Shown: in pieces, positions 1-51,180 of the stretch | Layout: the number at the start of each line of letters is the position of its first letter | How positions within the stretch are numbered: position 1 is the stretch's first letter | Assembly (NCBI GenBank): GCA_951406725.2 | Contig: OX597826.1 | Coordinates: 33,356,001-33,420,000 of the forward strand | Length of the DNA: 64,000 bases | DNA from: Octopus vulgaris | Lineage: Eukaryota | Direction: 5' to 3' | Made by a program: the position numbers and the translations under genes | Notes under the pieces: generated by a model | Told to the model about the DNA's origin: nothing | What the model saw: only the letters and a program-made list of their open reading frames with translations | Database searches by the model: none

Positions 1-715
1 GGTGCTTTTTACGTGCCACCCGCACAGGTGCCAGACAGAGCTGGCAAACGGCCACGAACGGATGGTGCTTTTACGTGTCACCGGCACGGGGCCAGGCGAG
101 GCTGGCAACGGACATGAACGGATGGTGCTTTTACGTGCCACCAACACGGGGGCCAGACAGAGCTGGCAAACGGCCATGAAACGGATGGTGCTTTTACGTG
201 TCACCAGCACGGGGGCCAGGCGAGGCTGGCAACGGACACGAACGGATGGTGCTTTTACATGCCAACGACACGGGGGGCCAGACAGGGCTGGCAAACGGCC
301 ACGAACGGATGGTGCTTTTACGTGTCACCGGCACGGGGGCCAGGCCAGGCTGGCAACGGACACGAATGGATGGTGCTTTTACATGTCACCGACATGGGGG
401 CCAGACAGGGCTGGCAAACGGCCACGAACGGATGATGCTTTTACATGTCACCAACATGGGGGCCAGACAGGGCTGGCAAACGGCCACGAACGGATGGTGC
501 TTTTACGTGTCACCGGCACGGGGGCCAGACAGAGCTGGCAAACGGCCACAAACGGATGGTGCTTTTACGTGTCACCGGCACGGGGGCCAGGCCAGGCTGG
601 CAACGAACACAAACGGCTGGTGCTTTTACGTGCCACCGACACGGGGGCCAGACAGGGCTGGCAAACGGCTACGAACGGATGGTGCTTTTATGTGTCACCT
701 GCACGGGGGCCCTGA
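1..715 (-). repeat. ~61-bp tandem array (about 11.5 units) in the RTE 3' UTR
   Basis: Unit ggtgcttttacgtgYcaccggcacgggggccag(acagRg|gcgagg)ctggcaa(a)cggMcacgaacggat is repeated in two variants. Track ORFs 2..715, 198..833 and 445..741 are by-products. Confidence 0.95.
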
Positions 716-9799: not shown

Positions 9800-10078
9800 A
9801 AGACAATGACATTGCATGGTGCCTTCCAACCTAAGGCAAGTGTACACAGGCTCTACATGAAGAGATGTAAAGGTGGATGTGGGCTGATTAGCATATGAAA
9901 GTGCATCAACAATGAAAGAAGAAACGAAGCAGAGTATTTGGTGAATAGCAAGCAAGACCTGCTACAGTATGCTGTTAATGCAGAAGGATTTACCAAAAAT
10001 CCCAGAGAGTGCTTATCAATTCTGATCACAAATAGCCACTGAGAGAGAAGTAACTCTACTCCACATGGAATTACAGAC
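9800..10078 (+). mobile_element. R4/Dong LINE internal fragment (post-RT region)
   Basis: Translates KTMTLHGAFQPKASVHRLYMKRCKGGCGLISI, homologous to HHPKSDIERLYIQRIEGGRGL at 49102-49446. It starts at a (TTA)n tract. Confidence 0.8.
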
Positions 10079-10371
10079 ATTATTTACGTTCGACGGATAT
10101 TTGTCCTCATTTTTTTTATTGTTAACGCAACGTTTCACTTGATGTACCCTCCAGCCTTCATCAGGTGTCTTGGGGAAATTTCGAACCTGGGTTCTCATTC
10201 CTAAGATATTTATCAATGTTGTTGTTGTTGTTATTATTATTATTATTATTATCATTATTATTATTATTATCATTATTATTATTATTCAGGTCACTGCCTG
10301 GAATCAAACTTGGAACCTTGGGGTTAGTAGCCCATGCTCTTAACCACTACACCATATGCCCGTGGGCATAT
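10079..10371 (-). mobile_element. Composite SINE: tRNA-like head, (AAT)n, hammerhead-bearing tail (copy 1)
   Basis: Head 10361-10285 (tggtgtagtggttaagagc..gtttgattcc), (AAT)n ~10284-10218, tail with CUGAUGA..GAAACGUU at 10171-10124 (stem II decayed). Homologous copy at 48045-50917. Confidence 0.85.
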
Positions 10372-10444
10372 CTGTGAATTTTCAGGCAATTTCATTCACT
10401 AGAAAAATTTCAGCACATATGGGTTACAATCCAAATTTGTTTAA

Positions 10445-12390: not shown

Positions 12391-12766
12391 CATCATCATC
12401 ATCATCATCATCATTTAGCGTCTGTTTTCCATGCTAGCATGGCTTGGACGGTTCAACTGGGGTCTGTGAAGCCGGAAGGCTTCATCAGGCCCAGTCAGAT
12501 CTGGCAGTGTTTCTACGGCTGGATGCCCTTCCTAACGCCAACCACTCCGTGAGTGTAGTGGGTGCTTTTTATGTGCCACCCGCACAGGTGCCAGACAGAG
12601 CTGGCAAATGGCCATGAACGGATGGTGCTTTTACATGCCACTGGCATGGGGGCCAGGCGAGGCTGGCAACGGACACGAGCGGATGGTGCTTTTACATGCC
12701 ACCGGCACGAGGGCCAGGCGAGGCTGGCAATGGACACGAACAGATGGTGCTTTTTACGTGCCACCA
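12391..12766 (-). mobile_element. RTE 3'-end fragment with ~3.3 array units
   Basis: (cat)n tail, 3' UTR and units near-identical to 1-180; it stops inside a unit at cgtgccacc. Confidence 0.9.
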
Positions 12767-25707: not shown

Positions 25708-26018
25708 AGTGGGACCGATGCTAGGGCCATCTGACTGGATCCCGTTCTGGTGGCATGTAAAATAGACCATTCGAGTGTGGTCAATGCCAATGCCATCTGA
25801 CTGGAACCTGTGCTGGTGGTACGTGGAAAGCACCATTTGAGTGTGGCTTATGCTGGGGCTAACTGACTGTCTCCCATGCTGATAGCATGTAAAAAGCACC
25901 CACTACACACTTGGAGTGGTCGGCATTAGGAAGGGCATCCAACTATAGAAACCTTACCAGATCAGATTGGAGATTGGAAAGTGGACATTAAAATGATGAC
26001 GACGACGACGATGATGAT
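25708..26018 (+). mobile_element. RTE 3'-end fragment with ~3 array units
   Basis: ggtggcatgtaaaa units, then aaaagcacccactacac..aggaagggcatcc..ggacattaaaatgatgac. Confidence 0.8.
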
Positions 26019-41530: not shown

Positions 41531-42456
41531 CATCATCATCATCCTCATCAGCATCGTTTAACGTCCGCTTTCTATGCTGGCATGGGTTGGATGGTTTGCC
41601 TGAGAACTGGTAAGCTGGGAGCCGACTCCAGGCACCAATCTGATTTGGCAAGGTTTCTTCAGCTGGATGCCCTTGCTAATGCCAACAACTCTGAGAGTGT
41701 AGTGGGTGCTTTTACCTGCCACCAGCATGGGAGCCAGTCAGGCTGCACTGGCATCGGCCATGCTCAAATGGTGCGCTTTTTAAGTTCCACTGGCATGGGT
41801 GCCAGTCAGGCAGCACTGGCATTGGCTATACTTGAGTGGTGCTTTTTAAGTGCCACTGGCACAGAAGCCAGTCATGTAGCACTGACATTGGCCATGACTA
41901 TGATTTCCCTTGGTTCAACAGGTCTTCACAAGCATGACATATTGGCCAATGATTGAAAGGTGCTTTTGAACGGGCCAGTTATGTGATATTGGCATTGGCC
42001 TTGACTATGATCTCATTTGGCTTGTCAGGTCTTCTCAAGCACAGCATATCTCCAACCATCTCAGTCACTTGTCATTAAGGTCGTGCTTCACTACCTCATC
42101 CCATGTCTTCCTGGTCTACCTCTTCCACAGGTTCCCTCCACTGTTAGGGTGTGACACTTCTTCACACAGCTGTCCTCATCCATATGCATCACATGACCAT
42201 ACCAGCACAGTCGTCTCTTTTGCACACCACATCTGATGCCTCTTATGACCAACTTTTCTTTCAGGATGCTTACATTCTGTTGTGTATGCACACTGATATT
42301 ACACATCAAGTGGAACATACTAGCTTCATTTCTTTCAAGCCTACGCATGTCCTCAGCAGTTACAGCCTTTGTTTCACTGCTGTGTAGCATGGCTGTCCAC
42401 ACACTGGCATCATACAGTCTACCTTTCACTCTGAGTGAGAGGCCCTTTGTTACCAT
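41531..42456 (-). mobile_element. RTE LINE 3' portion (ORF end, ~5 array units, tail)
   Basis: ORF 42091-42456 VTKGLSLRVKGRLYDA..GRGRP matches 760-1437; array at ~41705-42010; (cat)n tail. Confidence 0.9.
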
Positions 42457-46860: not shown

Positions 46861-48061
46861 GATGCTGATGATTATTATAAATTGTTATATATATCAATGG
46901 TAGTGGTGGTGGTGGTGGTGGTAATGGTGGTAATGGTGGTAATAGTGATTGTTGTGTTGGATGTGGGGATCGTGATGGTGATGGTAAAGGTGGTAAAGGT
47001 GGTGGAGGTTGTGGAGGTGGTTGAAGTGGCAGAGGTGGTGGTTTTGTTTGGTAAATAATCTTTGAAAATGAGGGGAAGAAAAGATTATTACAAACTACTA
47101 CTACTACTACCACCACCACCACAACAACAATGACAACAATAATAATGGTAGTAACAATAATCTATTCTTTATTAGCTGCAAAGGCCTGAAGAGATATAGA
47201 TAATACGAAACTTTCATTAGGGGTTATGAAGAAAAAGTGGAATGTCTTCAAAGGTAACAAAGATAAAAAGGGGAAAGCGTGGGAGATGTTACACAATATA
47301 TGAATGAATGTATTATGATTTTAAAAGTACATATATTTGTACGAGTGAGGTAAATCATGTATGATAAAACACACAATAATTTAAATAAGATATAAACATA
47401 AAGAAGATAAAACATAAATGATTACTGACTGGGTTGGCCCTCGGCACACCACAACCCTTACCACTCACCAATTCACAAATTGTTTCTGAGTGCAACAAAA
47501 TGCACTAGTAAGCATTTTTTTAAAGAAATTTGGTGATGAAAAATTCCAGTATCTTTTTAAAGTTCATTGTACGTCTTTTTGAAGTTCATTGTATTATCTT
47601 ATTTTTAGTTTCTCTATTAATCTATCTTTTGCATGTTGCTTATATTGTGAAACTATCTCTGATATACCGGCATCTTTGGAAAGTTTATGGCGTCGCAAAT
47701 ACGTAATTTTGTCTATTAATTGTTTGTTTGACTTTTGAAGGATGGTAGATCAAACTTCTTTTTCAGCATCTTCATTTCTCCATTATACCTTGGAGTGTGA
47801 TGTCATTGTCCTTTTGAAGAAATTGTTTCTCTTATATTTTTGTGAATTTGCATTGAGTTTTTCCCTTTTCTTTTTATGTTTCTCTCAACAATTTGTTAAA
47901 TTCCATCTGCAACTATTATTTCTTTGTAGTCACATGACAACTGAATGGTACTGCTGGTTGCCAATATTAGAACATGAATTCTTTACAGTTCTATATTTAA
48001 GAGATGAGGAATTATGTATATTATTTTCATTTGAAGAAAGTCTGTCATCTTGTTTGTTGCT

Positions 48062-48107
48062 AACACAACGTTTCGGCTGATATATCCTCCAGCCTTCATC
48101 AGGTGTC
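48062..48107 (-). ncRNA. Minimal type I hammerhead ribozyme
   Basis: GACAC-CUGAUGA-A-GGCUGG aggauaua UCAGCC-GAAA-CGU-U-GUGUU: stem I GACAC/GUGUU, 6-bp stem II, palindromic loopless stem III ACGU. Confidence 0.75.
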
Positions 48108-48154
48108 TTGGTAAAATTTCGAACCTAGGTTCTCATTCCTAAGGTATTTTTCGA

Positions 48155-48221
<67 letters not shown>

Positions 48222-48224
<3 letters not shown>

Positions 48225-50620
48225 TAGTTTTATTTTTATAGAGTGCTTTCACTTCACTACCGAGCGCAGCTCTGTGTGCCTTAGGTATGTGCTGTGATTT
48301 GTTGTGATGCTCTGATGGTTATTGTATGGAAAGTGTTCCGCGTAGGATGTGTGCAGTGCCTAGTAGTGCAATTTTCTGTATGCTATATGTGTTTGTAAGT
48401 CCTGGTGTTTTTGTTATGTATTTGTCTGAATATTTTTTTATCATGCCTTATGCACCTACTATGATAGGAATTGTTTCTGTTTTTAGATTCCACATTCTGG
48501 TTACCTCTATTTCAAGGTCTTTGTATTTTGAAAGTTTCTCCATTTCTTTTAGAGACACGTTGTCATCTGCCGGTATTGATGCATCAATTACAAAGCATTT
48601 TTTTTCTTCATGATCTCTGACAACTATATCTGGTCTGTTAGCCTTAATTTCTCTATCTGTGTGTATCGGCATATCCCAGAGTATGGTTGCTTTCTCGTTT
48701 TCTGTGACCTTTTCTTGTGTGTGCCTATAGCATCTTTTTTCTGTTGTTATTCCATAATGTTGGCATAGCTTCCAGTGTATGTAGGTTCCAACTCTGTCGT
48801 GTCTGTGAATATATTCCTTCTTAACCAGGACTGGGCAGCCAGAGATAATATGATTTATTGTTTCTTGCCCATCTCCACATATTCTGCAGTTACTTGTTAT
48901 ATTTCTTTTCATTGCATGTTTTTGGTGATTTCTGGTGGGGAGGCTTTGGTCTTGTGCTGCAATTAAAAATCCTTCTGTCTCTGCTTTGAGTCCTGAGCTT
49001 CTCAACCATTGCTGGGATTTTTCTTTGTCTATTTCTTTTGCGTTTAGTTTAGTCCAGTATTTACCATGAAGGGGCTTTACTTGCCATCGTTTTATCATGG
49101 TTCATTCCTGTTCTATTTTTAGTTTGGATTTCATTTGTTTTATAGCTTTTGTTGTTTCTTCTTCTTCTTCTTCTTCTTCTTCTTCTTCTTCATATCTATT
49201 AGGTGGTATGATTTCTTGTTTGTATTTGTCAGCTTCCTTAAATACTGAGAACAGTTTTTTGTTTTGCTCGTGTTTTGCCGCTATTTGTATCAGTTTTCCT
49301 TCCTTCTGAAGTTGATATTTTTGCAGTCCTATGGTGGTTATTTTATAGTAGTTTTCCAGCTGTAAAAGGCCTCTACCACCTTCTATACGTTGTATATATA
49401 GTCTTTCTATGTCAGATTTTGGGTGATGCATCCTAGATCCTGTCATTATTTTTCTTGTTTACCTATCTATTTTGGTCAGTTCATTTAGTGTCCAGTTAAG
49501 GATATTGTAGCTGTAACTTATAACTGGGACAGCTAAAGTGTTAATACCTATTATCTTGTTTTTAGTATTGATCTAACTCGTCTATAATATTCTTTTTTTA
49601 TTTTCTCTTTCATTTGTGTGTGTTGTGTCTTATCTAGTTCACGGATTCCTAAGTATTTGTAAGTTTGGCTTTGGTCTAGTTCTTTTATTTCATTTGTTTT
49701 ATCTAGTGTGATGTTGCTACTCTTAACTAGTTTTCCTCTTTTCAGGGTTACTTTGGCGCATTTTTCTAATCCAAATTTCATATCTATTTCTTTGGTAAAT
49801 CCATGAACTGTCTTTAATAGTGTTTCCAGCTGTTTGTCATTTGCAGTGTATAGTTTTAGGTCATCCATATATAAAAGGTGGTTGATCGTTTTGCCGTAAC
49901 ATTTATATCTGCATCCAGTTCTATTTAGCATATCAGATAGAGGTGACAGTGCCAAGCAGAAAAGGAGTGGAGAGAGTGTGTCTCCCTGGAATATTCCTCT
50001 TCTAATGGGGATGGCTTTGGTTTTCATGAGTCCCTCTTTTGTTTGGAGCTGTAGCACGGTTTGCCATTTATTCATAGAGTGCCCTATGAATTTTATAATT
50101 GTTGGTGCTACTTTGTTAATGGCTAGTGTTTCGAGGATCCATGTGTGGGGGATGCTATCAAACGCCTTTTTGTAGTCAATCCAGGCCATACTGAGGCCTT
50201 TCTTCTTTCTGTGGCTGTCTTCAGTTACGGCTTTATTAATCATTAGTTGATCTTTACAGCCATATGAGCCCTTGCGACATCCTTTCTGCTCTTCTAGAAA
50301 CAGGTTGTTTTCGTCCAGGTGCTTGTTCAACCTTTGCGATATCACTGCAGTAAATGCCTTGTACATTTTAGGGAGACAGGTTATTGGTCTGTAGTTTTCT
50401 GGTTTTGCTGTCTCATTTGACTTGGGAATTAAGATGGTTTTCACCTTTGTGAGCCATTCAGGCATTGTCTCTGGCTCTGCTAGTATGTTGTTAAAGTTTT
50501 CAGCCAGCTTTTTGTGCATTCCTGTTAGATATCTCAACCAGAATTTGGGGATCTTGTCATGCCCAGGTGCCTTCCAGTTGCTTAGTCTTTGCAGTGCCTG
50601 GGTGACCTCTTCAGTTGTTG
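48222..50620 (-). mobile_element. R4/Dong-clade non-LTR retrotransposon, 5'-truncated and frameshifted
   Basis: RT (NWKAPGHD, YRPITCL, WIDYKKAFDSIPH, RGIFQGDTLSPLLF, LLYMDDLK), CCHC finger CRIC..HIISGC, RLE RHD..RPD..ID..K, 3' UTR and (TAA)n on both sides. Confidence 0.95.
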
Positions 50621-50644
50621 TTATTATTATTATCATTATTATCA

Positions 50645-50762
<118 letters not shown>

Positions 50763-50911
50763 TCAGGTCACTGCCTGGAATCAAACTCAGAATTTTGGGA
50801 TTAGTAACCCATGCTCTTTACCATTAAGCCATATGCCCACGGGCATATGACATAGTGGTTAAGAGCGCAGGCTGCTAACCTCAAGACTCTGAGTTTGATT
50901 CCAGGCAGTGA

Positions 50912-50977
<66 letters not shown>

Positions 50978-51008
50978 TGATGATGATGATAATAATAATA
51001 ATAATAAT

Positions 51009-51069
<61 letters not shown>

Positions 51070-51180
51070 GTAATAATAATAATGATAAAAAAGACGTGAA
51101 AAAGTACCAGCTCATGTGTTTACTAGAATATTAGGATATTACCTTCCCAAAACACAAGAAAATGTTTAAAATACAAACGA

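Follow-up and report, generated by a model that had tools for sequence, protein, structure and literature searches.

Penelope-like elements (PLEs) of the Penelope/Poseidon type are built around one open reading frame (ORF) that couples a reverse transcriptase (RT) to a C-terminal GIY-YIG nuclease. The available portions of PMC4209133 and PMC8557442 describe them as forming partial tandems with inverted 5′ arms, as ending in a 3′ extension of about 30 nt, as carrying a minimal hammerhead ribozyme with a bulged base and a palindromic stem III, and as persisting mostly as lone truncated copies. A repeat that shares these traits is present in two copies in a 64,000-nt stretch of the Octopus vulgaris genome (assembly GCA_951406725.2, contig OX597826.1, positions 33,356,001 to 33,420,000 of the forward strand), hereafter the window. 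Unlike the PLEs of those portions, the octopus repeat bears a tRNA-derived head with A and B boxes, and its lone copies begin there. A first-pass annotation had taken the two copies for a composite short interspersed nuclear element (SINE) with a PLE-derived 3′ module. Judging by its sequence context, the unit of head, (AAT)n linker, hammerhead and 3′ extension is almost certainly the pseudo-long terminal repeat (pseudo-LTR) of an autonomous Penelope/Poseidon-type element.

The combination of a SINE with a hammerhead is already known from Schistosoma, where the SINE-like Sm-alpha and Sj-alpha elements are short repeats with a hammerhead downstream of an RNA polymerase III (Pol III) promoter. 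In the available part of PMC6765202 these elements are often tandem and cleavage-released and no autonomous partner is named, whereas the octopus copies are dispersed, have uncleaved ends and are identical to the repeat of an autonomous element. The TRIMp3 elements (Cassandra, Helenus and Ajax) likewise hold a small-RNA-derived Pol III promoter within a terminal repeat, and they are non-autonomous LTR elements, whereas the octopus promoter carrier is an autonomous PLE; the same source, in its available part, argues that autonomous TRIMp3 partners have to rely on Pol II and probably do not have a repeat of this kind in common with them (PMC10886601). TRIMp3 membership was rejected, as the octopus element has PLE architecture rather than true LTRs and lacks a fixed 4-5 bp duplication. 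Non-LTR retrozymes are non-coding hammerhead units from PLE pseudo-LTRs that are presumably moved by PLE enzymes (PMC7761336 and bioRxiv 10.64898/2026.07.22.740005, available parts). They form tandem arrays and are reportedly promoterless, whereas the octopus unit carries promoter boxes and is dispersed or head-to-head; it was not assigned to them, since its copies are mostly single or head-to-head and the tandem junction at locus L291 lies away from the cut site. For the D. virilis Penelope, the available text of PMC2377424 describes a LINE-like (long interspersed nuclear element) TATA-less internal promoter.

Pseudo-LTR hammerheads, lone truncated copies, PLE-derived retrozymes and Pol III promoters in non-autonomous LTR repeats are already known from these sources, as far as their available text goes. 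What appears to be new is a putative tRNA-type promoter sequence in the terminal repeat of an autonomous PLE. The word "tRNA" is absent from the available text of PMC4209133 and occurs once, for selenocysteine, in that of PMC8557442. The main text of bioRxiv 10.64898/2026.07.22.740005, as available, has no match for tRNA, promoter, octopus or cephalopod, and its supplements could list the family; the available text of the octopus repeat papers PMC13282606 (including its supplement) and PMC8967140 does not describe it. Neither a report of a tRNA-derived promoter in an autonomous PLE repeat nor an account of this family was found in the literature, a search to which Repbase, Dfam, SINEBase and the octopus SINE publication of 1994 were external, so the sequence may be catalogued under another label. 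In 1994 Ohshima and Okada are said to have described the octopus tRNA-derived SINEs OR1, OR2 and OK, some of them reportedly of arginine-tRNA origin, and the head could equal one of these or an entry of Repbase, Dfam or SINEBase.

The repeat unit and its link to a Penelope element

We read the "SINE" as a pseudo-LTR, head included, because of the linkage between ORF and head, a tandem at locus L073 and the clustering of 3′ ends. At L022, found among the tail-anchored loci described below, a GIY-YIG frame ends directly before the head. When loci were anchored on this frame, the head followed in 27/30 and the tail in 25/30; a search with an outside protein (62% identical) gave the head after the ORF in 29/30 loci, two of them with just 15-20 nt of head, and the two sets of loci overlap. 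The outside protein returned this family alone (30/30 loci, about 90-95% identity) and no other PLE family for comparison. L073 holds a full partial tandem, in which an ORF end, untranslated region (UTR), head, AAT repeat and tail are followed by a whole ORF and a second UTR-head-AAT-tail unit. L066 runs from head through tail into an ORF start, and the junction of tail and ORF start was present in all 30 loci fetched for it.

The ORF was compared with the Penelope/Poseidon motif criteria given in the available part of PMC8557442. By eye it shows DKG, YVDD and a CCHH-type GIY-YIG domain and has no linker zinc finger; one ORF piece matched RVT_1 (5.8e-08), and Pfam gave no match on the GIY-YIG piece. 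Eighteen protein relatives at 55-69% were recovered as proteins without DNA context, and a metagenome scan for relatives with flanks found none. The 3′ ends of copies cluster at tail positions 140-150 and 171-176, which matches the optional 30-40 nt extension of PLEs, and 42/61 arms of the head-anchored sample have an inverted partner. The Penelope origin that had been proposed for the 3′ module is supported, and the insertions show Penelope geometry. Crude estimates put the family at about 13,600 heads (47/163 exact) and about 65,000 tails (6/171 exact).

Head and tail are linked as well, a check that the first-pass annotation had called for: a tail lies within 520 nt of 51/61 heads. The best tRNA match of the head is the tRNA-Arg(TCG) of the same genome. 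Its score of 55 compares with 27.4±3.8 for dinucleotide shuffles, none of which (0/1000) reached 55, and the head is the best-scoring 75-nt window of the whole element. The A box (+8) and B box (+51) are spaced as in a tRNA, and the head is a decayed tRNA-like sequence. The letters of the second B-box-like motif noted earlier are present, inside a 12-nt palindrome, and their likeness to a tRNA is not significant (33/500 shuffles reach the score), so that a second tRNA unit, as in a dimeric SINE, was rejected.

Start sites of lone copies and their possible origin

To locate 5′ ends, 60 regions were drawn from the exact head matches that head the listing for contig C1, with seven earlier loci excluded. 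Among the resulting 61 arms, 41 start at −10 to +10 relative to the tRNA-like +1, 10 of the arms start exactly at −7, none start at −8 to −19 and 10 start farther upstream. The start hazard at the head edge is 0.03-0.07 per nt as compared to about 0.003-0.004 upstream, with a binomial P of 6e-36, which a tenfold increase of the assumed background changes to 4e-4. Arms that lack an inverted partner behave in the same way, 12/19 starting at −5 to +8 (a single locus is represented twice among them). A second sample, anchored on the tail and made up of 63 arms in 60 regions, again the top of the C1 listing, contained 40 arms with a head; 31 start at −18 to +35, none at −19 to −116, and 9 reach the ORF. 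Exact 20-mers occur 3917 times genome-wide in the head, 865 times about 60 nt upstream and 794 times another 105 nt upstream. Contigs from public runs, which indicate presence and not expression, have loose ends that pile up at −7 in 4/4 runs from four organism codes (14, 11, 5 and 40 contigs), and the inverted-head consensus occurs in 3 of the 4. Lone copies are not randomly truncated, and because most of them begin at the promoter, the unit is likely transcribed and copied alone in the manner of a SINE.

From the sequence we consider it probable that a short RNA started by Pol III at the pseudo-LTR head is copied by the RT and GIY-YIG nuclease that the element itself encodes. With the A box about 14 nt downstream, the start agrees with a primary transcript from a tRNA-type Pol III promoter. 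Here Pol III would start about 6 nt before the head, with the G at −6 as the likeliest first base. The short uncleaved RNA could then be copied in trans into new sites, because it holds the 3′ end used by PLE enzymes. Its complementary DNA (cDNA) may fold on the 5-bp palindrome at the template end and prime itself, a snap-back that would account for the sharp edge ("wall") at −7 and for head-to-head copies, window copy 2 among them. Cleavage by the hammerhead is predicted to be slow and to need a dimer, so that most templates would escape it; transcripts that run from an upstream repeat into the ORF would lose their head to it. Lone copies behave like SINEs, yet by family membership they are PLEs.

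The repeat bears on the mode of transcription of PLEs and on the role of their hammerheads. It points to a path by which a PLE could yield a SINE without the latter arising separately, and Penelope ends may make up some of what is counted as "SINE" in such genomes. With about 14,000 heads and 65,000 tails (crude figures), it also offers a short, abundant substrate for work on initiation by Pol III, on cleavage of dimers and on RT priming.

Several observations weigh against a Pol III-started template or against its autonomous source. The tRNA panel comprised 30 loci of the same genome and six amino-acid types only, the head has no cloverleaf fold, and it is missed by the Rfam tRNA model. Among the best 40-100 ORF matches there was no intact full-length ORF but only broken ones, the best stop-free match lying in a 569-aa frame. 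All 5′-end samples come from contig C1 and are biased toward young copies, and no allele marks a self-propagating short lineage. The wall at −7 coincides with a palindrome, so that snap-back can determine just where it lies, and truncation is likewise raised at the tail palindrome, by about three times in a biased pool. Finally, window copy 1 may extend about 20 nt into the UTR, as an ordinary truncated long copy would.

Because the wall lies on a palindrome and the tail palindrome raises truncation, RT abort on a long RNA is a live rival, albeit an unlikely one. It holds that lone copies are 5′-truncated products of a long Pol II-made Penelope RNA, on which RT aborts and snaps back at the pre-head palindrome, the tRNA-like sequence being a passenger. 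The wall falls exactly on the 5′ arm of that palindrome, and the inverted partners of the 42/61 arms are in keeping with snap-back; however, the hairpin is weak (−2.6 kcal/mol as DNA, versus −3.7 for hammerhead stem II, where no pile-up occurs), the excess at the tail palindrome is about 3-fold against 10- to 25-fold at the head edge, and the arms without an inverted partner also begin at the wall. Short and long copies share alleles and age (4.6% non-CpG divergence), as truncation would predict, and lone minimal hammerheads are taken as truncated PLEs in the available part of PMC4209133; the agreement of the wall's position with the A-box spacing would, on the other hand, be left to coincidence.

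The first-pass annotation had implied an independent composite SINE, with a tRNA head, a Penelope tail and source copies of its own, that parasitises a separate Penelope element. Although this would explain the fixed 5′ start, the head-tail linkage and the 4.5-fold excess of heads over ORF-linked copies (raw counts), we judge it quite improbable, as the autonomous element bears the same head in its repeat. Short and ORF-linked copies are not separated by any allele (lowest p 0.015 among 51 tests) and have the same non-CpG divergence, so that neither measure hints at a distinct SINE lineage. Each of the 10 arms that start at −7 has an A just upstream of it, at a place where ORF-linked sequence shows T; this A may reflect either a start inherited by short sources or fresh snap-back. 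The 10 head-only arms gave no parent SINE that would join this head to a different tail, and apart from one duplicated pair they have no alternative tail in common. The sampled copies are young and mostly neutral.

With tRNA-derived SINEs (SINE2) the unit shares a tRNA-related head with A and B boxes at its 5′ end. Assignment to SINE2 was rejected, since target-site duplications are rare and the simple repeat is internal rather than 3′: direct repeats of 8-11 nt adjoin 4/25 hand-picked copies without an inverted arm, and window copy 1 has none. A separate SINE2 lineage sharing just the 3′ tail was rejected as well, the whole unit being common with the PLE and no allele being diagnostic.

RNase P cuts at +1, and excision of the short template from a long transcript by an RNase P-like nuclease that recognises the head, with no Pol III start, is no less improbable than a composite SINE: such cutting, too, would fix the 5′ end close to the tRNA +1 and leave short and long copies with the same alleles, but 24/61 arms retain element bases −1 to −7, including a 2-nt spacer that inversion cannot regenerate, and the predicted head fold has no acceptor stem.

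Beyond the short RNA, the protein-coding RNA might itself be made by Pol III from the upstream repeat, in which case the hammerhead would trim off the tRNA head of transcripts running into the ORF and leave an uncapped message. We regard this extension as doubtful. If true, the element would be an autonomous retrotransposon driven by Pol III and at the same time its own SINE. Among 30 loci running from repeat to ORF start, five reach the head, starting at −7, +1, +4, +29 and +32; 3/5 thus start at the same head edge as lone copies, and one runs 900 nt into the ORF. At L073, however, the upstream repeat begins within the ORF end, which weighs against a Pol III-made coding RNA. The 2.6-kb sense strand has no T4 run (P 0.0075, 0.054 and 0.21 for mono-, di- and trinucleotide shuffles), which would be a weak signal for such an RNA; it was rejected as proof, the single control, the window LINE, having 4 runs in 2391 nt.

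The hammerhead and the ends of copies

The copy 2 hammerhead, reported as intact, stands in both pairing and core: stem I is GACAC/GUGUU, the core is CUGAUGA, and a single bulged A, a 5-bp stem II, GAAA and the palindrome AACGUU complete it. It thus has the core, NUH, bulged base, 5-bp stem I, stem II of 5-6 bp and palindromic stem III of a minimal type I hammerhead. In copy 1 the decay of stem II was seen again, with 2/5 pairs broken, and one stem I pair is broken as well. Across the 2.8-Gb genome there are 2281 exact occurrences of a hammerhead 33-mer and 0 of its reversed control, so the motif is far beyond chance. Scans with Rfam and ARAGORN matched neither head nor hammerhead (in one scan, among 150 of the 217 rows). 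The hammerhead looks constrained among source elements, because the only frequent non-CpG allele of the core falls on the free position N7 (55/230).

The first-pass annotation had also suggested that a self-cleaved RNA is mobilised, and here the ends of copies did not agree. Cut positions 91-92 hold 3/411 insertion 5′ ends and position 90 holds 0/390 3′ ends, in a pool of loci of which part had been chosen for an intact hammerhead; among loci anchored on the tail 3′ end, 0/30 start at 91±2. Copy ends carry no mark of the cut site, and hammerhead-defined monomers or circles were rejected as the inserted template. The available text of PMC4209133 gives minimal hammerheads of this sort a low, dimer-only activity, which the missing cut-site ends fit.

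The repeat contains palindromes at window positions 10371-10354, 10194-10183 and 10134-10129, with consensus self-duplex energies of −17.1, −12.4 and −3.5 kcal/mol; speculatively, all three could aid the RNA-RNA pairing needed for a dimer hammerhead and for two-armed insertions. A loose motif scan gave other CUGANGA...GAAA matches on the minus strand at 10966-10938, 42356-42333, 1127-1100 and 62820-62800.

Window copies and neighbouring repeats

The two dispersed minus-strand copies, with the order of head, (AAT)n and tail described for them at first, are 86% identical in their heads and 85-86% in their tails. Their placement was right, and their tails reach farther than had been given, to 10067 (copy 1 extending from 10371) and 47984 rather than 10079 and 48045. 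Copy 2 consists of the same unit and is no plain copy, since it also bears a second head in inverted orientation and a LINE of 2.4 kb interrupts its (AAT)n; no tail was found beyond the (AAT)n of its inverted arm. Both are decayed products of the Penelope pseudo-LTR family.

Table 1. Features of the two window copies (window coordinates).
Feature	Coordinates	Strand	Remarks
Candidate Penelope 3′ UTR remnant upstream of copy 1 head	10374..10382	−	9-nt exact match at roughly the right distance; uncertain
Copy 1 5′ palindrome	10354..10371	−	family start wall (−7) = 10368; tRNA +1 = 10361
Copy 1 tRNA-Arg-like head	10287..10361	−	A box 10354-10344; B box 10311-10301
Copy 1 (AAT)n linker	10219..10286	−	
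Copy 1 pseudo-LTR tail (positions 1-152 of 176)	10067..10218	−	12-nt palindrome 10194-10183
Copy 1 minimal type I hammerhead, decayed stems I and II	10124..10169	−	predicted cut between 10129 and 10128
Copy 2 inverted head (head-to-head arm)	50831..50915	+	
(AAT)n of copy 2 inverted arm	50916..51088	+	
Copy 2 direct head including shared palindrome	50764..50848	−	tRNA +1 = 50838
Copy 2 (AAT)n, upstream half	50613..50763	−	
LINE, 5′-truncated and broken, inside copy 2 (AAT)n	48222..50612	−	RVT_1 5.2e-33, zf-RVT 1.5e-07
Copy 2 (AAT)n, downstream half	48157..48221	−	
Copy 2 full-length tail including ~30-nt 3′ extension	47984..48156	−	palindrome 48132-48121
Copy 2 intact minimal type I hammerhead	48062..48107	−	predicted cut between 48067 and 48066

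The LINE encodes an RT, a zinc knuckle and a restriction-like C-terminus, from which we infer a Dong/R4-like element; it is a later guest in the copy 2 (AAT)n and lies outside the repeat unit. Dong elements target TAA repeats, according to the available part of PMC3812793. Pieces of Dong/R4-like LINEs recur in the linker, which acts as a landing pad, in the window and at L002, L198 and L203, and a second repeated element sits inside it at L009, L029, L043, L044 and L222.

Compound insertions are found at other loci of the family. Many of L266-L294 consist of a tail and the first 100-260 nt of the ORF, placed head-to-tail on a short unit, and 11/30 break at ORF nt ~105-128; template jumping or early-terminated RNAs may account for the joins. 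L291 (900-2000, minus-oriented) carries tandem units of AAT, tail and 164 nt of ORF, in which the same junction, not at the hammerhead cut, occurs twice and once more in the inverted arm. A short inverted arm frequently adjoins the long arms that bear an ORF (L235, L242, L244, L250, L252, L255, L257 and L261-L263), which suggests two RNA templates per insertion. At L315-L318 (G000 C4), one two-armed insertion is repeated four times at a spacing of about 5.2 kb inside a larger tandem duplication.

A further tRNA-like interspersed repeat, also abundant, occupies about 10690-10620 of the window, some 250 nt upstream of copy 1, and recurs at L012, L017, L025, L027 and other loci. Minisatellites with units of 61-68 bp occupy window positions 1-711, 12561-12765, 25718-25894 and 41705-41896; the start of the unit is similar in 3/4 arrays, and the fourth may be on the opposite strand.
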